In this document: piece after piece, positions 1 through 48,477 of the stretch
Numbering within the stretch: the first letter of the stretch is position 1
Layout of the letters: the number at the start of each line of letters is the position of its first letter
Assembly (NCBI RefSeq): GCF_044324785.1
Contig: NZ_CP172127.1
Source: Escherichia coli
Lineage (GTDB): Bacteria; Pseudomonadota; Gammaproteobacteria; Enterobacterales; Enterobacteriaceae
Strand: one strand, 5' to 3'
DNA: 64,000 bases
Position numbers and translations under genes: made by a program
Notes under the pieces: model-generated
Database searches by the model: none
Told to the model about the DNA's origin: nothing
Seen by the model: the letters and a program-made list of their open reading frames with translations, nothing else

Positions 1-2468
1 AAGCCTAACCCTTTGAGATCCGAGCGAACCAGCACGGCAAATTCGGCATCGATGTTATCAGGGTCGGAGATCGCACGCGTGACGCCGAGGATCTCTTCCG
101 TTTGATCAATACGTCGTACCGCTACAAATGCCATTTCCCGATCGTAGTCGATCTGCGTCATGTTGGCTAAATCTTCATGGGTAAATTCGTTGATCTCGCT
201 AAAGTAGCGGTAATAAAGATCTTCTTTGGTGACTCGCGAAATGAACTGCTGAAGTTGTGGCTCATCTTCTGGCAAAATCGGGCGGAACAAGCAGCGTTCA
301 CCGTTTTTCAATTCTACCCACTCTTCCAGCTGATGTGGATAAGGGCGCACTGCCAGCCGGCTCTCGTTATCGCCTTCAAACGGCGCGATATCCAGCGTGA
401 CATCCAGCGCGGTAAATTCACTGCCAGAAGCCAGCAAAGGATGAATATCCAGACGTTGAATTTCCGGACAATCGACAATCAAGTTGGAAACCTGTACCAG
501 AAGCTGGCTCAAGCCTGCAACATCCAATGGGCGTAGCGCACTGCGCGCACGAATCTTTTTACTTTTGATCCCCTGAATAACCAGATAGCGGGCCAGGTTC
601 ATGTTCAGCGGCGGCAGTGCGACGACGGCTTGATCTTCAGGACGCCACTCCACACCGCCTTCACCCAGCATGATTAACGGCCCGAAAACCGGATCGTGCT
701 CAACCACAACCCGCAACTCCTGAGCGCCAGCACGGTTAGCCATACTTTGCACCAACAGGCCGTGGACCCGCGCCTGCGGCCAGGCCATTTTTACGCGATC
801 GAAAATAGCGTTTGCCGCTTGCTGGACTTCATTAGCTGTACGCAGGTAGAGCATTACGCCCTGAACTTCCGATTTATGTGGAATATCCGGCGAGCGCAAT
901 TTCAGTGCCACCGGATAGCCAATCTGTTCGGCAATATGTACCGCTTCGGTGCTATCACTGGCAATCCAGGTAGGGAGAGTATTCATACCATACGCTTGCA
1001 GGATGGGCTGAACTTCATGGGTATCGAGCGACGTAGCCCCTTCGGCAATCGCCTGTTGCAACAGAAGATGCGCTTCTGCGGTATTGGAAGTCAGATTGCT
1101 GGGCAACGCCGGCGTTTCGCGTAGTTGCTTCTGATTACGCCGGTACTCGACCATATGCATAAAAGCAGTGATGGTTCCTTCCGGAGTACGGTAAGTCGGC
1201 AGCCCGGCTTCGCTGAATAAACGTCGTGCCTCTTGCGAGGAGTGCTCGCCGCACCAGTTCGTCAGCAAAGAGACATATTTGCTGCGGGGATGATGCTTTA
1301 CCGCTTCAATTAATACTTGCGCGCTTTCTGTTGCGGGAGCAGCGGCGCTGGGCGAATGAATAACCATCAGCGCATCAAAATCCTGGCTGTGGAGCAGAAT
1401 GTCCAGCGTTTTGACATAATGCTCGCTGCTGGCGTCATCGCGCAGATCGAGCGGGTTAGAGATTGCCACATGCCCTGGCAGTGCATCGCGCAGTTTCTGG
1501 CAGGTTTCTTCGCTTAGCGTTGCCAGCTTGCCATTACGTGACCATAAGGCATCCAGCGCCAGCGCGGCAGGCGCAGCACCGTTGCTGATAATCATCAATC
1601 GGTCGCCACGCAGCGGGCGCATATGGCTAAGGGTTTCCACCGCCGAAAACAGTTCGTGGGTGTCCTGTACCCGCAACAAACCGGCACGCTGAATAGCTGC
1701 ATCCCACGCCGGATCCATTCCTGCCGTGGTGTTCAACAGACGTTGAGCCGCCGGGCTACGTCCGCTTTTAATCACCAGAATCGGTTTATTGCGCGAGGCA
1801 CTACGGGCTGCCGAAACAAAGCGCCTCGCGTCGCTTAACTGTTCGAGATAGAGCAGGATGGCGCTGGTTTTACTGTCGCGCGCCAGATAGTCGAGCAATT
1901 CATCAACGTCGATATCCAGGCTGTCGCCGAGCGCAATAAAGTAGGAAAAGCCCATCTCACGCTGTTGCGCCCAGTCGAGGATGGTGTTGGAGACAGCAGC
2001 CGATTGCGAAATAAACGCCAGCTTGCCGCGTTTAATCGGCACAGGCGAAAAGCTGGCATTCAGACCTTGCCAGGGAGCCAGTAAGCCCAGACTGTTTGGT
2101 CCTAGCAGGCGCATGTTATGGCGCAGGGCGCAGGCGCGGAGATCTTCGTGTTGCGATGCCGGGGCGGAAAGAATAATGCAGGTTTTACAGCCTTTCTCGC
2201 CGAGCTCTTCCAGAAGAGCAAGATTACGGCTGGCATTGGTACATAAAACCGCAAGGTCGGGTGTAAAGGGCAAGCTGGCAATATCCGGCCAGGCCAACAC
2301 ACCCAACACCGCTTTCCAGGCTGGCGTCACCGGGAGTACCGGTCCGTTAAAGCCTCCCGCCAGCAGGTTACGCATCATCAGGTAACCTGCGCGATTGGGT
2401 TTCATCGACGCGCCAATTACCGCTATCGATTTTGGTCGCAGTAGTGCTTCCAGTCCTCGCTGACTCAT
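1..2468 (-). CDS. patZ: Protein lysine acetyltransferase PatZ/Pka (YfiQ), N-terminal ~822 codons; 3' end runs off the window edge
   Basis: Reverse-strand ATG at 2466-2468 reads MSQRGLEALLRPKSIAVIGAS; frame taken to run open to position 1 because no ORF-track entry (not traced codon by codon); directly downstream of yfiP as in E. coli. Confidence 0.8.
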   Translation of the reverse strand, partial: MSQRGLEALLRPKSIAVIGASMKPNRAGYLMMRNLLAGGFNGPVLPVTPAWKAVLGVLAWPDIASLPFTPDLAVLCTNASRNLALLEELGEKGCKTCIILSAPASQHEDLRACALRHNMRLLGPNSLGLLAPWQGLNASFSPVPIKRGKLAFISQSAAVSNTILDWAQQREMGFSYFIALGDSLDIDVDELLDYLARDSKTSAILLYLEQLSDARRFVSAARSASRNKPILVIKSGRSPAAQRLLNTTAGMDPAWDAAIQRAGLLRVQDTHELFSAVETLSHMRPLRGDRLMIISNGAAPAALALDALWSRNGKLATLSEETCQKLRDALPGHVAISNPLDLRDDASSEHYVKTLDILLHSQDFDALMVIHSPSAAAPATESAQVLIEAVKHHPRSKYVSLLTNWCGEHSSQEARRLFSEAGLPTYRTPEGTITAFMHMVEYRRNQKQLRETPALPSNLTSNTAEAHLLLQQAIAEGATSLDTHEVQPILQAYGMNTLPTWIASDSTEAVHIAEQIGYPVALKLRSPDIPHKSEVQGVMLYLRTANEVQQAANAIFDRVKMAWPQARVHGLLVQSMANRAGAQELRVVVEHDPVFGPLIMLGEGGVEWRPEDQAVVALPPLNMNLARYLVIQGIKSKKIRARSALRPLDVAGLSQLLVQVSNLIVDCPEIQRLDIHPLLASGSEFTALDVTLDIAPFEGDNESRLAVRPYPHQLEEWVELKNGERCLFRPILPEDEPQLQQFISRVTKEDLYYRYFSEINEFTHEDLANMTQIDYDREMAFVAVRRIDQTEEILGVTRAISDPDNIDAEFAVLVRSDLKGLG

Positions 2469-9479: not shown

Positions 9480-11922
<2,443 letters not shown>

Positions 11923-17922: not shown

Positions 17923-17962
17923 TTCACGTTGTCGCCGTTATGGCGACAACGTGAATTATTTA
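17923..17962 (+). terminator. Rho-independent terminator after lepB
   Basis: 14-bp perfect stem TTCACGTTGTCGCC / GGCGACAACGTGAA followed by a T-rich tract. Confidence 0.8.
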
Positions 17963-21644: not shown

Positions 21645-21726
21645 TTATAAAGTAAAACCCCCGAACTGGTAAGGAACGGGGGTTTTACTTTTTAACTTTA
21701 ATTTTGTGCAGCACACGATTCCAACG
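21645..21726 (-). ncRNA. ohsC: Probable OhsC antitoxin sRNA of the shoB type I toxin-antitoxin pair (boundaries approximate)
   Basis: Plus-strand 21706-21724 (GTGCAGCACACGATTCCAA) repeats shoB 5'-UTR 21955-21973 at 18 of 19 positions, so a minus-strand transcript is antisense to the shoB leader; candidate minus-strand -10 CATAAT (complement of 21733-21738); terminator at 21652-21688. Confidence 0.35.
21652..21693. terminator. Bidirectional intrinsic terminator (acpS on plus strand; probable OhsC 3' end on minus strand)
   Basis: GTAAAACCCCCG / CGGGGGTTTTAC 12-bp stem with T-rich flanks on both strands. Confidence 0.75.
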
Positions 21727-30904: not shown

Positions 30905-31088
30905 AGTGGCTCATTCACCGACTTATGTCAGCCCCTTCGGGACGTGCTACATAAAATTCGAATGACGCACAACAAGGTGCCTGCCGTCCAACTTCTGATA
31001 TCAGCGTAGCTATATCAACCATCGGGCGAAACGTCGAGTTAGGCACCGCCTTATTCCATAACAAAGCCGGGTAATTCCCGGCTTTGTT
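30905..31088 (+). ncRNA. glmY: GlmY small RNA (SroF/tke1), about 184 nt
   Basis: Starts about 12 nt after the -12 element (AGTGGCTCATTCACC...) and ends at terminator hairpin AAAGCCGGG taatt CCCGGCTTT (31063-31085) plus GTTGT; in the purL-glrK gap next to the GlrK/GlrR genes. Confidence 0.75.
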
Positions 31089-35175: not shown

Positions 35176-35188
35176 ACCGCGTCAAGGG

Positions 35189-35214
35189 TTGCCGGATGTT
35201 TCCATCCGGCAACA
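35189..35214. terminator. Bidirectional terminator between convergent glnB and hmp
   Basis: GTTGCCGGATG ttt CATCCGGCAAC perfect hairpin. Confidence 0.8.
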
Positions 35215-39382: not shown

Positions 39383-39499
39383 CTTCACTAAACCTTGTTT
39401 AGTTAATTGCGTGATTATTCCGCGAAAACATTGCCAGATTGTTCAATACACTGCCACAAATCTTTTAATTCAGTATGTCTTGTTAATATTGAGGGCACC

Positions 39500-42400
39500 A
39501 TGACTCCAGTAAAAGTGTGGCAAGAGCGCGTTGAGATCCCGACCTATGAAACCGGGCCGCAGGATATACATCCCATGTTCCTGGAAAATCGCGTTTATCA
39601 GGGATCGTCCGGCGCGGTTTATCCCTACGGCGTGACCGATACGCTGAGCGAGCAGAAAACCCTGAAATCCTGGCAGGCGGTGTGGCTGGAAAACGACTAC
39701 ATCAAAGTGATGATCCTGCCGGAACTGGGCGGTCGGGTGCATCGCGCGTGGGATAAAGTGAAACAGCGCGATTTTGTCTATCACAATGAAGTCATTAAAC
39801 CGGCGCTGGTGGGGCTGCTGGGACCGTGGATCTCCGGCGGGATTGAGTTTAACTGGCCGCAACACCATCGCCCGACCACCTTTATGCCCGTTGATTTCAC
39901 CCTCGAAGCCCATGAAGACGGCGCACAGACGGTGTGGGTAGGCGAAACGGAGCCGATGCATGGTTTACAGGTGATGACAGGTTTCACCCTGCGTCCTGAC
40001 CGGGCGGCGCTGGAAATCGCCAGCCGCGTCTATAACGGCAACGCCACGCCGCGTCATTTCTTGTGGTGGGCCAACCCGGCAGTGAAAGGGGGTGAAGGGC
40101 ATCAGAGCGTTTTCCCACCGGATGTGACTGCGGTGTTTGATCACGGCAAACGGGCCGTCTCTGCTTTCCCCATCGCCACCGGCACTTACTACAAAGTGGA
40201 CTACTCCGCTGGAGTGGACATTTCTCGCTATAAAAATGTGCCTGTTCCAACCTCATATATGGCTGAAAAATCACAGTACGATTTTGTTGGCGCGTGGTGT
40301 CACGATGAAGATGGCGGTTTGCTGCACGTTGCCAACCACCATATTGCGCCAGGTAAAAAACAGTGGAGTTGGGGACACAGTGAATTTGGCCAGGCGTGGG
40401 ATAAGAGTCTGACCGACAATAACGGCCCGTATATCGAACTGATGACTGGTATTTTTGCCGATAACCAGCCCGATTTTACCTGGCTTGATGCTTACGAAGA
40501 GAAGCGTTTCGAGCAGTATTTCCTGCCTTATCATTCTCTGGGCATGGTGCAAAATGCCTCCCGCGATGCGGTGATAAAACTCCAGCGTAGTGAGCGGGGG
40601 ATTGAGTGGGGGCTGTATGCCATCTCTCCGTTGAACGGATACCGCCTGGCGATCCGCGAAATCGGCAAATGCAACGCGTTACTTGATGATGCCGTGGCCT
40701 TGACACCAGCGACCGCCATCCAGGGCGTGTTGCACGGTATCAATCCTGAAAGGCTGACCATTGAGCTCTCCGATGCCGACGGCAATATTGTACTGAGTTA
40801 TCAGGAACATCAGCCGCAAGAGTTGCCGTTGCCGGACGTCGCCAAAGCGCCACTGGCAGCACAAGACATTACCAGTACAGATGAAGCCTGGTTTATCGGT
40901 CAGCATCTGGAGCAATATCATCACGCCAGCCGTTCACCGTTCGATTACTACCTGCGCGGCGTGGCGCTGGATCCGCTGGATTATCGCTGTAATCTGGCGC
41001 TGGCGATGCTGGAATATAACCGCGCAGATTTCCTGCAAGCGGTGGCGTATGCCACTCAGGCGCTGAAACGCGCACATGCGCTGAACAAAAATCCGCAGTG
41101 CGGACAGGCGAGTTTGATTCGCGCCAGTGCTTACGAACGTCAGGGGCAATATCAACAAGCCGAAGAGGATTTCTGGCGTGCGGTCTGGAGCGGCAACAGT
41201 AAAGCCGGTGGCTATTATGGTCTGGCACGGCTGGCGGCGCGTAATGGTCACGTCGACGCTGGTCTGGATTTTTGCCAACAAAGTCTTCGCGCCTGCCCAA
41301 CCAATCAGGAAGTGCTTTGCCTGCATAATCTGCTGCTGGTGTTAAGTGGTCGTCAGGACAACGCGCGTTTGCAGCGTGAGAAACTGCTGCGTGATTATCC
41401 GCTGAACGCCACTCTGTGGTGGCTGAACTGGTTCGATGGTCGTAGCGAATCAGCCCTCGCGCAGTGGCGCAGTCTGTGTCAGGGACGCGACGTTAACGCC
41501 CTGATGACCGCCGGGCAACTGATTAACTGGGGAATGCCCACCCTGGCGGCAGAGATGCTGAACGCACTGGACTGCCAGCGCACGCTGCCGCTTTACTTGC
41601 AAGCCAGCATGCTGCCGAAAGCTGAACGCGGCGAACTGGTCACAAAAGCCATTTATGTCTTCCCGCAGTTTGTCCGTTTCCCGAATACGCTGGAAGAAGT
41701 GGCGGCGCTGGAGAGTATTGAAGAGTGCTGGTTTGCCCGTCATTTACTGGCCTGCTTCTACTACAACAAGCGCAGCTACAACAAAGCCATTACTTTATGG
41801 CAACGTTGCGTAGAGATGTCGCCGGAGTTTGCCGACGGCTGGCGCGGGTTAGCGATCCATGCGTGGAATAAGCAACACGATTATGAGCTGGCCGCGCGTT
41901 ATCTTGATAATGCTTATCAGCTTGCTCCGCAGGATGCACGTCTGCTTTTCGAACGGGATTTGCTGGATAAGTTAAGCGGAGCCACACCGGAGAAACGACT
42001 GGCGCGTCTGGAAAATAATCTGGAAATTGCGCTGAAACGCGACGACATGACCGCAGAACTGCTCAATTTGTGGCATCTCACGGGTCAAGCAGACAAAGCG
42101 GCGGACATTCTCGCCACGCGCAAATTCCACCCGTGGGAAGGCGGGGAAGGGAAGGTCACCAGTCAGTTTATCCTCAACCAGTTATTACGCGCCTGGCAGC
42201 ATCTTGATGCCAGAGAGCCGCAGCAGGCCAGCGAACTGCTTCATGCCGCGCTGCATTATCCGGAGAATTTAAGCGAAGGCCGTTTACCGGGGCAAACTGA
42301 CAACGACATCTGGTTCTGGCAGGCGATATGCGCCAACGCGCAGGGTGATGAAACTGAAGCGACGCGTTGTTTACGTCTGGCGGCGACTGGCGATCGCACC

Positions 42401-42781
42401 ATTAACATTCACAGTTATTACAACGATCAGCCGGTTGATTATCTCTTCTGGCAAGGAATGGCGCTGCGACTGCTGGGCGAACAACAAATCGCACAGCAAC
42501 TGTTTAGTGAAATGAAACAGTGGGCGCAAGAGATGGCGAAAACCAGTATCGAGGCGGATTTCTTTGCTGTTTCACAACCTGACCTGTTGTCGCTGTATGG
42601 CGATTTACAACAGCAGCATAAAGAAAAATGCCTGATGGTGGCGATGCTGGCGTCCGCGGGACTAGGGGAGGTTGCGCAATATGAATCTGCTCGTGCTGAA
42701 TTGACGGCGATTAATCCGGCCTGGCCGAAAGCAGCATTATTCACCACCGTGATGCCTTTTATTTTTAACCGCGTTCACTAA
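39500..42781 (+). CDS. yphG: Large TPR-repeat protein YphG (start uncertain: ATG 39500 with GAGGG RBS, or TTG 39407)
   Basis: Continuous ORF 39407..42781 (1124 codons from TTG, 1093 from ATG); TPR-like repeats in the C-terminal two-thirds. Confidence 0.8.
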   Translation: MTPVKVWQERVEIPTYETGPQDIHPMFLENRVYQGSSGAVYPYGVTDTLSEQKTLKSWQAVWLENDYIKVMILPELGGRVHRAWDKVKQRDFVYHNEVIKPALVGLLGPWISGGIEFNWPQHHRPTTFMPVDFTLEAHEDGAQTVWVGETEPMHGLQVMTGFTLRPDRAALEIASRVYNGNATPRHFLWWANPAVKGGEGHQSVFPPDVTAVFDHGKRAVSAFPIATGTYYKVDYSAGVDISRYKNVPVPTSYMAEKSQYDFVGAWCHDEDGGLLHVANHHIAPGKKQWSWGHSEFGQAWDKSLTDNNGPYIELMTGIFADNQPDFTWLDAYEEKRFEQYFLPYHSLGMVQNASRDAVIKLQRSERGIEWGLYAISPLNGYRLAIREIGKCNALLDDAVALTPATAIQGVLHGINPERLTIELSDADGNIVLSYQEHQPQELPLPDVAKAPLAAQDITSTDEAWFIGQHLEQYHHASRSPFDYYLRGVALDPLDYRCNLALAMLEYNRADFLQAVAYATQALKRAHALNKNPQCGQASLIRASAYERQGQYQQAEEDFWRAVWSGNSKAGGYYGLARLAARNGHVDAGLDFCQQSLRACPTNQEVLCLHNLLLVLSGRQDNARLQREKLLRDYPLNATLWWLNWFDGRSESALAQWRSLCQGRDVNALMTAGQLINWGMPTLAAEMLNALDCQRTLPLYLQASMLPKAERGELVTKAIYVFPQFVRFPNTLEEVAALESIEECWFARHLLACFYYNKRSYNKAITLWQRCVEMSPEFADGWRGLAIHAWNKQHDYELAARYLDNAYQLAPQDARLLFERDLLDKLSGATPEKRLARLENNLEIALKRDDMTAELLNLWHLTGQADKAADILATRKFHPWEGGEGKVTSQFILNQLLRAWQHLDAREPQQASELLHAALHYPENLSEGRLPGQTDNDIWFWQAICANAQGDETEATRCLRLAATGDRTINIHSYYNDQPVDYLFWQGMALRLLGEQQIAQQLFSEMKQWAQEMAKTSIEADFFAVSQPDLLSLYGDLQQQHKEKCLMVAMLASAGLGEVAQYESARAELTAINPAWPKAALFTTVMPFIFNRVH

Positions 42782-42797
42782 ACCTTATTAACTGTAA

Positions 42798-42834
42798 TAT
42801 TTGAGCGGCACGCGCTGCCGCTCACGCTCAAATA
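42798..42834. other. Nested inverted repeat between yphG and yphF
   Basis: TATTTGAGCG...CGCTCAAATA outer arms with inner GAGCGGCA/TGCCGCTC arms; 17 nt after the yphG stop. Confidence 0.5.
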
Positions 42835-42877
42835 ATTAAAATAAGCCGTTGTAAATAAAAACCCTACAGGAGGCACT

Positions 42878-43861
42878 ATGCCTAAAAAAATGAGAACAAC
42901 CCGTAATCTATTATTAATGGCTACGCTATTAGGTAGCGCACTATTCGCCAGGGCTGCGGATAAAGAAATGACCATTGGCGCAATATACCTTGATACCCAG
43001 GGATATTACGCTGGCGTGCGTCAGGGCGTTCAGGATGCGGCAAAAGATTCTTCAGTACAGGTACAGTTAATTGAAACTAACGCCCAGGGTGATATTTCGA
43101 AAGAAAGTACCTTTGTTGATACCCTCGTGGCGCGTAATGTCGATGCCATTATTTTATCGGCAGTGTCTGAAAATGGCAGTAGCCGTACCGTTCGTCGCGC
43201 CAGTGAAGCGGGTATTCCGGTGATTTGCTACAACACCTGTATTAATCAAAAAGGCGTCGATAAATATGTCTCGGCGTATCTGGTCGGCGATCCGCTGGAA
43301 TTTGGTAAAAAACTGGGTAACGCTGCCGCCGATTATTTTATTGCCAACAAAATTGACCAGCCGAAAATTGCCGTTATCAATTGCGAAGCCTTTGAAGTTT
43401 GTGTGCAACGACGTAAAGGGTTTGAAGAAGTATTAAAAGCCCGCGTTCCCGGCGCGCAAATTGTCGCTAATCAGGAAGGGACTGTTTTAGATAAAGCGAT
43501 TTCCGTTGGTGAAAAACTAATTATCTCCACGCCGGATCTCAACGCCATTATGGGCGAATCGGGCGGTGCGACACTCGGCGCGGTAAAAGCGGTACGTAAT
43601 CAAAATCAGGCCGGAAAAATTGCTGTTTTCGGTTCTGATATGACCACTGAAATTGCTCAGGAGCTGGAAAACAACCAGGTGCTGAAAGCGGTGGTGGATA
43701 TTTCCGGTAAGAAAATGGGCAATGCTGTTTTCGCGCAAACTTTGAAGGTTATCAATAAACAAGCCGACGGTGAAAAAGTGATTCAGGTGCCTATCGATCT
43801 CTATACCAAAACGGAAGACGGTAAACAGTGGCTGGCAACGCACGTTGATGGTCTGCCCTAA
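42878..43861 (+). CDS. yphF: ABC transporter periplasmic sugar-binding protein YphF
   Basis: 327 aa with signal peptide; AGGAGG RBS. Confidence 0.9.
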   Translation: MPKKMRTTRNLLLMATLLGSALFARAADKEMTIGAIYLDTQGYYAGVRQGVQDAAKDSSVQVQLIETNAQGDISKESTFVDTLVARNVDAIILSAVSENGSSRTVRRASEAGIPVICYNTCINQKGVDKYVSAYLVGDPLEFGKKLGNAAADYFIANKIDQPKIAVINCEAFEVCVQRRKGFEEVLKARVPGAQIVANQEGTVLDKAISVGEKLIISTPDLNAIMGESGGATLGAVKAVRNQNQAGKIAVFGSDMTTEIAQELENNQVLKAVVDISGKKMGNAVFAQTLKVINKQADGEKVIQVPIDLYTKTEDGKQWLATHVDGLP

Positions 43862-47556: not shown

Positions 47557-48429
47557 ATGACCATCTATACCTTGTCCCACGGGTCGCTAAAGCTGGGCGT
47601 TTCTGACCAGGGCGGCGTAATCGAAGGCTTCTGGCGCGATACGACGCCGCTCTTACGTCCTGGTAAAAAAAGCGGTGTGGCAACCGATGCCTCTTGTTTT
47701 CCGCTGGTGCCATTTGCAAACCGGGTGAGCGGCAACCGTTTTGTCTGGCAGGGGCGTGAGTATCAACTGCAACCGAATGTTGAGTGGGATGCGCACTATC
47801 TGCACGGCGACGGCTGGCTGGGGCAGTGGCAATGTGTCTCGCGCAGCGAAGATAGCTTGTGTCTGGTGTATGAACATCGCAGCGGTGTTTATCACTATCG
47901 GGTAAGTCAGGCGTTTCATTTAACGGCGGATACGCTGACGGTGACGCTCTCTGTCACCAATCAAGGGGCAGAGACGCTGCCATTTGGTACCGGCTGGCAT
48001 CCTTATTTTCCGTTGTCACCACAAACGCGGATTCAGGCGCAGGCGAGCGGTTACTGGCTGGAGCGGGAGCAGTGGCTGGCGGGTGAGTTTTGCGAGCAGC
48101 TACCGCAGGAGCTGGATTTCAACCAGCTCGCGCCGTTGCCGCACCAGTGGGTAAACAATGGCTTTGCCGGATGGAATGGTCAGGCCCGCATCGAGCAGCC
48201 GCAGGAGGGTTATGCCATCATCATGGAAACGACGCCACCTGCACCATGTTATTTCATCTTTGTTTCCGACCCGGCGTTTGATAAAGGATATGCGTTTGAT
48301 TTCTTCTGTCTGGAACCGATGAGCCATGCGCCGGATGACCATCATCGCCCGGAAGGGGGTGATCTCATTGCGCTTGCACCAGGGGAATCAACAACTTCAG
48401 AGATGTCGTTGCGGGTTGCGTTACTGTAA
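47557..48429 (+). CDS. yphB: Aldose 1-epimerase-family protein YphB
   Basis: 290 aa; ORF-track match, RBS AAGGAG. Confidence 0.85.
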   Translation: MTIYTLSHGSLKLGVSDQGGVIEGFWRDTTPLLRPGKKSGVATDASCFPLVPFANRVSGNRFVWQGREYQLQPNVEWDAHYLHGDGWLGQWQCVSRSEDSLCLVYEHRSGVYHYRVSQAFHLTADTLTVTLSVTNQGAETLPFGTGWHPYFPLSPQTRIQAQASGYWLEREQWLAGEFCEQLPQELDFNQLAPLPHQWVNNGFAGWNGQARIEQPQEGYAIIMETTPPAPCYFIFVSDPAFDKGYAFDFFCLEPMSHAPDDHHRPEGGDLIALAPGESTTSEMSLRVALL

Positions 48430-48437
48430 TTTATAAA

Positions 48438-48477
48438 ATGCCGGATAAGGCGTTCACGCCGCATCCGGCATGTTTTT
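48438..48477. repeat. REP-type palindrome between yphB and yphA, also serving as terminator
   Basis: ATGCCGGAT aaggcgttcacgccgc ATCCGGCAT followed by GTTTTT. Confidence 0.75.

Follow-up and report, generated by a model that had tools for sequence, protein, structure and literature searches.

Locus and gene context

The site lies in the 96-nt spacer that separates the co-oriented genes yphG and yphF in the yphGFEDCB cluster of the Escherichia coli chromosome, within a stretch of 64,000 nucleotides that was analysed as a whole and is referred to here as the window. Gene names were taken from the open reading frame (ORF) list together with the annotation of strain N3, which is 99.7 % identical to the window, and of K-12. 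The yphH gene, which encodes a regulator of the ROK family, is transcribed divergently from the yphGFEDCB cluster, and its product is described as an uncharacterised repressor of that family (PMC4288165). The yph locus (yphH plus yphGFEDCB) belongs to the sugar-utilisation clusters of E. coli K-12 that are still uncharacterised. In K-12 the corresponding spacer occupies minus-strand positions 2679368-2679463, where the RefSeq annotation gives no feature and no repeat_region. A yph transcript spanning both yphG and yphF, that is, co-transcription of the two genes, is assumed throughout. Upstream of yphF, the block ACCCTACAGGAGG (window 42860-42873) is kept well past the Shine-Dalgarno sequence in nearly all genera, and RNAalifold pairs CCU with AGG (3 bp) within it. 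The coordinates of the features are given in Table 1.

Table 1. Features of the yphG-yphF boundary and related sites (window positions unless stated otherwise)
Feature	Position	Strand	Description
yphG CDS	39500..42781	+	DUF5107 protein, 1093 aa; ATG 39500; TAA stop 42779-42781; from the ORF list
yphF CDS	42878..43861	+	Periplasmic sugar-binding protein, YphDEF ABC transporter (putative); ATG 42878
yphF Shine-Dalgarno, AGGAGG	42868..42873	+	Within conserved block ACCCTACAGGAGG
Whole reported palindrome	42798..42834	+	A/U extension TATTT / AAATA on both sides of the hairpin
Outer repeat, TATTTGAGCG / CGCTCAAATA	42798-42807 / 42825-42834	+	10 bp, 100 % complementary, 17 nt between
Inner hairpin, arms TGAGCGGCA / TGCCGCTCA	42802..42824 (arms 42802-42810 / 42816-42824)	+	Perfect 9-bp inverted repeat
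Derived 5-nt replacement, CGCTC	42825..42829	+	In place of ancestral TCACA, TCACT or TTGCC; gives rise to the 10-bp outer repeat and to the CGCTCA tandem (x2)
Window haplotype, CGCTC	42825-42829		1,005 exact + 574 one-mismatch genomes (about 29 %)
K-12 haplotype, TCACA	42825-42829		3,204 exact + 626 one-mismatch genomes (about 71 %)
M1	39387..39414	+	Perfect dyad ACTAAAC-CTT-GTTTAGT (39387-39403) plus TAATTGCGTGA
M2 left-flank block	42777..42804	+	Degenerate dyad ACTAAAC-N3-GTTTAGT (42777-42793), then TGTAAT..TGA into the left arm
-10-like hexamer, TAAAAT	42837..42842	+	TAGAAT in K-12; candidate internal promoter element
Second hairpin	L021, about 2395-2430		Equivalent positions in L020, L026, L017, L016, L015 and L012

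Repeat geometry and predicted folding

An earlier note on this DNA had described a 10-bp outer inverted repeat enclosing an 8-bp inner one. The outer repeat is perfect and lies at the coordinates claimed for it, and the inner one proved to be a pair longer, with a 9-bp stem of which 7 pairs are G-C and a 5-nt loop, CGCGC (42811-42815). The distances given there, 17 nt after the yphG stop and 44 nt before yphF, agree under inclusive counting with the 16 nt found between the yphG stop and the outer repeat and the 43 nt between the repeat and the yphF ATG; the inner hairpin begins 21 nt past the yphG stop, and the yphF start is 54 nt downstream of the hairpin. The nested arrangement had to be abandoned. 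The left arms have 6 nt in common (42802-42807), and a tandem CGCTCA CGCTCA (42819-42830) makes up the right side, so that the inner and outer helices are mutually exclusive, and the two pairings are alternative registers of one left arm. The folding energies, which the note had named as a check, bear out a stable structure, with -15.9 to -16.0 kcal/mol for the inner hairpin and -16.1 kcal/mol for the best outer-stem structure, which is the minimum free energy (MFE) structure (ViennaRNA). Its description of the flanks as A/T-rich and devoid of a clean U-tract also stands, for both strands, and the order around the stem, U-rich upstream and A-rich downstream, is the reverse of that of a terminator.

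The two registers of the window allele are nearly isoenergetic, with a computed equilibrium of ~69 % outer and ~31 % inner pairing (ViennaRNA). In the common E. coli allele a 5-nt bulge sets the TATTT / AAATA extension apart from the hairpin, and in the window it is fused into the 10-bp alternative stem; the outer repeat is thus predicted to make the RNA toggle between two registers instead of holding one conformation. The window contains 11 perfectly paired hairpins whose stem is 9 bp or longer and whose loop does not exceed 8 nt, compared with 1.36 +/- 1.2 in 100 dinucleotide shuffles, and the repeat at the yphG/yphF boundary exceeds chance. A long-range helix, CUUAUU/AAUAAG, that would enclose the hairpin was rejected, as it is not kept in K-12.

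Alleles in E. coli and origin of the outer repeat

Of 5,426 complete E. coli genomes, 5,411 gave exactly one matching place for a 43-nt query covering the site (threshold E <= 10). Both inner arms were identical across all intact E. coli copies sampled in the allele alignment; the loop occurs as CGCGC, TGCGC or CGTGC, and the block of five bases that follows the right arm changes as a unit, which confines the 10-bp outer repeat to the minority haplotype (Table 1). The K-12-type haplotype is carried by K-12, BL21, O157:H7 and O111, and intermediate haplotypes are found in only 2-3 genomes. The outgroups have TTGCC (E. albertii) or TCACT (E. whittamii and two divergent species representatives labelled E. 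coli) at 42825-42829, and CGCTC is therefore the derived state. Since it is absent from ~71 % of E. coli and from all outgroups, the outer repeat cannot be a conserved functional part of the site.

If the ancestral five bases are replaced by the reverse complement of 42803-42807, each of the three ancestral states turns into the exact window sequence, and copying the neighbouring CGCTC (42819-42823) directly does so equally well; the inverted and direct templates are indistinguishable because the inner arms are complementary to each other. The copied tract may span up to 42798-42807, given that AAATA is already complementary to TATTT. From the allele sequences we infer that, within E. coli, a single templated replacement of 5 nt filled the ancestral bulge with a second CGCTC and created the outer repeat, which appears to be a recent, allele-specific by-product outside the conserved design of the site. 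Template-switch mutations in quasi-palindromes were reportedly described by Ripley in 1982 and by the Lovett laboratory for a thyA hotspot, and Loytynoja and Goldman are said to have formulated a four-point model of template switching in 2017. The outer arm resembles such mutations in that five adjacent substitutions perfect an imperfect inverted repeat, and the changes are clustered, derived, matched by an exact reverse-complement template and accompanied by few intermediates. It differs in that a direct-repeat copy explains it equally well and in that the event is read from population data. The outer repeat would provide a clean natural example of a templated 5-nt change inside a quasi-palindrome, and the variant is now carried by ~29 % of the E. 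coli genomes sequenced.

Two E. coli genomes show lesions at or near the boundary. In strain 2018-05-5CC (L005, from about position 228) an IS1A interrupts the hairpin in its right arm, following TGCCGC, and separates yphG from yphF; in strain 2013C-3513 (L002) yphG is annotated as a frameshifted pseudogene.

Conservation beyond E. coli

A scan with YphF, using one genome per species, returned 57 loci, and yphG is directly upstream of yphF in all 23 Enterobacterales loci that extend that far. A homologous hairpin block, GTT(A/T)ACTG(T/A)AAT-N4-GAGCGGC-loop-GCCGCTC, stands at the start of the spacer in 13 Enterobacteriaceae lineages, with the hairpin core offset by 24 nt from the T of the yphG stop in 12 of them; the exception, RIT691, has a 7-nt deletion in the flank. 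Across 18 sequences that represent the 13 lineages, the core GAGCGGC/GCCGCTC shows little or no change, and the loop is variable. Over the 30 non-loop positions of flank and arms, identity to E. coli is 80-93 % in 11 of 12 comparisons (63 % in RIT691), as against 33-55 % at the 4-fold synonymous sites of yphF in other genera (74 % in E. albertii) and 2-4 of 7 positions in the loop, the last being about neutral. As judged from these alignments, the pattern shows strong purifying selection on the hairpin and thereby points to a functional element at the yphG/yphF boundary, of which the inner GC-rich hairpin, previously unannotated, is the conserved part.

The element is not universal. In four Enterobacterales lineages (L014, L018, L030 and L031) the spacer is 20-30 nt long and lacks the hairpin, and the M2 tail and the -10-like box are also absent from these yphG-yphF junctions, so that the whole spacer module is dispensable. 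Ewingella and Rahnella have a different strong hairpin, again without a U-tract, at the corresponding place (z = -5.8 and -3.6, respectively), and in two further lineages no hairpin was found there. The L030 record, titled Chryseobacterium sp. 18061, holds an Enterobacteriaceae-type yphG-yphF locus with a YphF that is 85 % identical to that of E. coli, and the assembly is probably mislabelled or contaminated.

Outside Escherichia the spacer is ~45 nt longer, and past the -10-like box, ahead of the ribosome-binding site, it contains a second hairpin. The sequence of this hairpin is wholly different between genera, a stem-loop is nevertheless present in each, and it is absent from Escherichia. 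The first hairpin seems to be constrained in sequence, beyond shape.

Comparison with terminators and other known elements

With 9 bp, 7 G-C pairs, a 5-nt loop and -16 kcal/mol, the hairpin has the G+C-rich stem-loop of an intrinsic terminator, and like a terminator or attenuator it follows soon after a stop codon. It differs from an intrinsic terminator in its tail. A U-run (at least about 5 of the 8 nt directly 3' of the stem) is missing on both strands, the window tails being CGCUCAAAUA for the inner stem, AUUAAAAUAA for the outer one and AAUAUUACAG on the minus strand, and the K-12 tail after the hairpin being UCACAAAAUA. A terminator and promoter scan of the window made no call anywhere in the yphG-yphF spacer. 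A canonical intrinsic terminator was rejected on these two grounds. The more general idea of a functional boundary element is retained. Among the 13 homologous hairpins from other lineages, the terminator scan was passed by one, the U-tailed RIT691 homologue (tail GUUUUCGAUG / GTTTTCGATG).

The RIT691 tail bears on an explanation that we consider unlikely, namely that the hairpin is the decayed terminator of an ancestral yphG unit, which has lost its tail in Escherichia and has residual or no function left. Tails are indeed U-richer elsewhere, in Pluralibacter (UGUUUCAG) and Citrobacter (UUUUCC or UUUCUUC) as well as in RIT691, than the UCACAAAAUA or CGCUCAAAUA of E. coli, the Escherichia spacer has lost ~45 nt including the second hairpin, and the whole module has been lost in four lineages. 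The stem itself, however, is invariant between E. coli and E. albertii despite 26 % neutral divergence, the chance of 14 core positions remaining unchanged between the two being about 0.015; variation within E. coli has so far fallen in the loop, bulge and flanks and never in the stem, and most tails outside Escherichia also fail the terminator criterion.

Several further identities were examined and rejected. A search against Rfam 15 gave sub-threshold matches only, the thermometer model at 42832-42883 scoring 20.5 bits against a gathering score of 88, and a known RNA family was dismissed on these scores. The element is not a dispersed repeat, since the 43-nt query matches exactly one place per genome, and with no repeat annotated in the K-12 spacer a REP/BIME or other dispersed palindrome was discarded. 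A small ORF in the spacer (TTG AGC GGC ..., 12 codons) has no ribosome-binding site and is lost in the lineages with a 6-nt loop. A sigma-54 promoter (CGGCAC-N-TGC in the stem) would have a GG-to-GC spacing 2 nt too short, and the motif is unconserved across genera; for a CRP or LacI-type operator (TGAGCGG, TCACA) the spacing was wrong by inspection.

RNA helix or DNA site

Three departures from the 7-bp core occur, and each is a G.U or U.G pair as read on the + strand; on the other strand they would be A.C mismatches. The closing pairs exchange U-A for C-G and A-U for C-G among lineages, and several genera extend the stem with flanking pairs of their own, to a maximum of 13 bp in UBA3516. The distance between the cores is 6 nt in Phytobacter, UBA3516, Enterobacter R1 and Entomohabitans and 7 nt elsewhere, a variation that would do no harm to an RNA and would be awkward for a dimeric DNA-binding protein. 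In RNAalifold the inner helix is the only consensus structure of the spacer proper, the other call being the 3-bp helix at the ribosome-binding site. In the covariation analysis 90 % of cells were paired, 4 of the 9 pairs never varied, and double changes occurred in 2 pairs (3 cells); the observed number of covarying pairs was reached in 190 of 500 shuffles and the covariation score in 8 of 500, with a figure of 54/500 for the extended helix. The formal covariation is weak because the stem core does not vary.

Other properties resemble those of an operator-type dyad. The half-sites are conserved and the loop sequence between them is unconstrained; the fixed half-site spacing of an operator palindrome was not found, the spacing being 6 or 7 nt across lineages. 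The non-pairing left flank is conserved as strongly as the stem. Such strict conservation of the stem sequence, together with a conserved unpaired left flank, fits sequence-specific protein recognition better than it fits a generic hairpin. With regard to the RNA-processing and protein-binding options offered in the earlier note, selection upholds a functional element, and the invariant core does not choose between the two.

Flanking motifs and the case for an internal promoter

The left flank of the hairpin belongs to a longer block, M2, made up of the last yphG codons and the flank itself, whose dyad has 3 mismatches and is conserved across genera. It is a direct repeat of M1, which overlaps the translation-initiation region of yphH (minus strand) at the start of the yphH-yphG spacer, so that the two sites are 3.4 kb apart and bracket yphG. 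Each of the eight genera examined has the two copies, whose similarity score was equalled by 0-18 of 300 shuffles, and the perfect dyad lies in one spacer or the other depending on the genus; M1 and M2 show no mutual covariation. On this pattern M1 and M2 form a candidate operator pair, for which YphH is the obvious candidate binder. They resemble the operators of the ROK proteins NagC and Mlc in being dyads beside a divergent ROK gene, with two copies in the locus (PMC4288165). The NagC/Mlc operator rule is TT-N9-AA, with TT/AA at positions +/-5,6, and ACTAAAC-N3-GTTTAGT departs from those operators by breaking it at +/-5,6 (PMC4288165). The rule matches a site in the Enterobacteriaceae yphH-yphG spacer, and no consistent occurrence was found in the yphG-yphF spacer. 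The GC hairpin is likewise unlike the NagC/Mlc operators, which are A/T-rich.

Elsewhere in the window, ACTAAACACGGTTTGGT at 11841-11857, 17 nt upstream of the nadB start, matches the M dyad with 1 mismatch. The region around it, TGTTTA-ATTTAC-TAAACA, is presumably the NadR box, and the near-match was judged coincidental.

Downstream of the hairpin, a -10-like box TA(G/A)AAT follows after 12-13 nt in nearly all lineages (12 nt in the window), with T1 and T6 invariant and A2 nearly so across genera. No match to a -35 element was found upstream of the TAAAAT box, and a consensus promoter scan made no call in the spacer of E. coli, Citrobacter, Phytobacter or RIT691.

The three parts could belong together at the DNA level, as elements of an internal, regulated promoter of yphFEDCB composed of M2, the GC palindrome and the -10-like box, in which the palindrome (about -47 to -25) would be either a protein site that replaces the -35 element or a terminator or insulator ahead of the promoter. 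We regard this as possible, if somewhat doubtful, and as the main rival of the RNA stem-loop proposed below. The sequence-conserved half-sites with free sequence between them, the invariant T1 and T6 of the box and its constant 12-13 nt spacing to the hairpin speak for it, as does the paralogy of M2, kept in 8 genera, with the M1 dyad that overlaps the yphH start; the lack of M1-M2 covariation is what a degenerate protein-binding motif present twice would be expected to show. The divergent regulator fits as well, YphH being an uncharacterised repressor of the ROK family (PMC4288165), and the proteins induced on levoglucosan in one proteomic study include YphF and not YphG (PMC8753852), which is compatible with uncoupled expression of the two genes and far from a proof of it. 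Against such a promoter stand the missing -35 match and the negative promoter scans in the four genomes, the half-site core spacing of 6 or 7 nt, the G.T asymmetries within the core, and the absence of a yphF transcription start site among the entries listed in the Cappable-seq and ROSE supplements; moreover, we know of no protein that binds GAGCGGC.

A more specific version, in which the three-part module (M2 dyad, GC hairpin and -10-like box) is a promoter of yphFEDCB's own under the control of YphH, strikes us as rather improbable; two operators bracketing yphG could then cooperate, for instance through looping or by forming a roadblock. In a more exotic version of the module, the yphG 3' UTR pairs with the yphH ribosome-binding site. 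The corresponding explanation is that the end of the yphG mRNA, consisting of M2 and the protective hairpin, acts in trans by pairing with the translation-initiation region of yphH, and so exerts feedback on the repressor gene when the operon is transcribed. In the window 13 nt are perfectly complementary (UUCACUAAACCUU vs AAGGUUUAGUGAA) and cover the yphH Shine-Dalgarno sequence, and the duplexes predicted for 8 genera range from -17 to -35 kcal/mol, with 0-18 of 300 shuffles as strong. The complementarity is, however, automatic from an old direct duplication, and the hairpin has no U-tail, which Hfq-dependent 3' UTR small RNAs normally carry. M1 and M2 do not covary and the anti-Shine-Dalgarno CCTT is replaced in the M2 of other genera (by GAAC, GAGC, CGCC and others), which makes a role in trans very improbable.

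Proposed role of the hairpin

The yphG/yphF hairpin is a modest regulatory element. Our preferred reading, held tentatively as the one with a reasonable though less than even chance, is that of a sense-strand RNA stem-loop at the 3' boundary of the yphG cistron which serves as a pause, a weak attenuator or an exonuclease barrier; we infer its strand, its RNA-level action and its effect on expression. The inner hairpin would form in the sense (+) yph transcript, 21 nt downstream of the yphG stop, and would act as a pause site or weak attenuator and in addition obstruct 3'-to-5' exonucleases. As it has no U-tract, it is not an efficient intrinsic terminator. The read-through transcript would be cut in the downstream A/U-rich spacer, or terminated further on, and the hairpin would then give the yphG segment a fate distinct from that of the yphFEDCB transporter segment. 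The structural features of an intercistronic stabiliser are present, in that a stable sense-strand hairpin without a terminator tail lies between co-oriented cistrons.

The REP hairpins between malE and malF, which, in work of Newbury and colleagues from 1987, reportedly stabilise intercistronic mRNA, are a close parallel. The yph hairpin resembles them as a stable, G+C-rich, U-tract-less sense-strand structure between sugar ABC-transport cistrons, and by analogy a 3' exonuclease block that sets different levels of the upstream and downstream genes would be expected. It differs from them in being single-copy and outside the REP/BIME family, and the gene order is reversed with respect to mal, as in yph the large cytoplasmic-type gene comes before the hairpin and the binding-protein gene after it.

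In E. coli, exonuclease-trimmed 3' transcript ends are reported to collect at stable stem-loops that have no U-tract (Dar & Sorek 2018, PMC6061677). In comparison with the trimmed ends of Rho-terminated transcripts, the yph hairpin, also lacking a U-tract, could set a precise 3' end in the same way, and it differs in that a well-translated yphF follows 54 nt downstream, where Rho action would be unexpected.

The Term-seq tables of Adams et al. 2021 list no yphG or yphF 3' end, the operon probably being silent there, and no yphG/yphF entry was found in the TERMITe supplement; the yph cluster is probably silent in standard media. No new kind of system is involved, the current picture of bacterial gene regulation is left unchanged, and the practical value is local. 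It consists of handles for the study of yph, namely a strongly selected hairpin, a two-copy candidate operator dyad and a candidate internal -10 box.

Other palindromes in the window

Just after yphB, which ends at 48429, the palindrome ATGCCGGATAAGGCGTTCACGCCGCATCCGGCAT at 48438-48471 looks like a REP-type extragenic palindrome. Long perfect hairpins with stems of 11-15 bp lie at 17923-17955, 21649-21691, 31060-31088 and 35188-35213, and are probably terminators of neighbouring genes.
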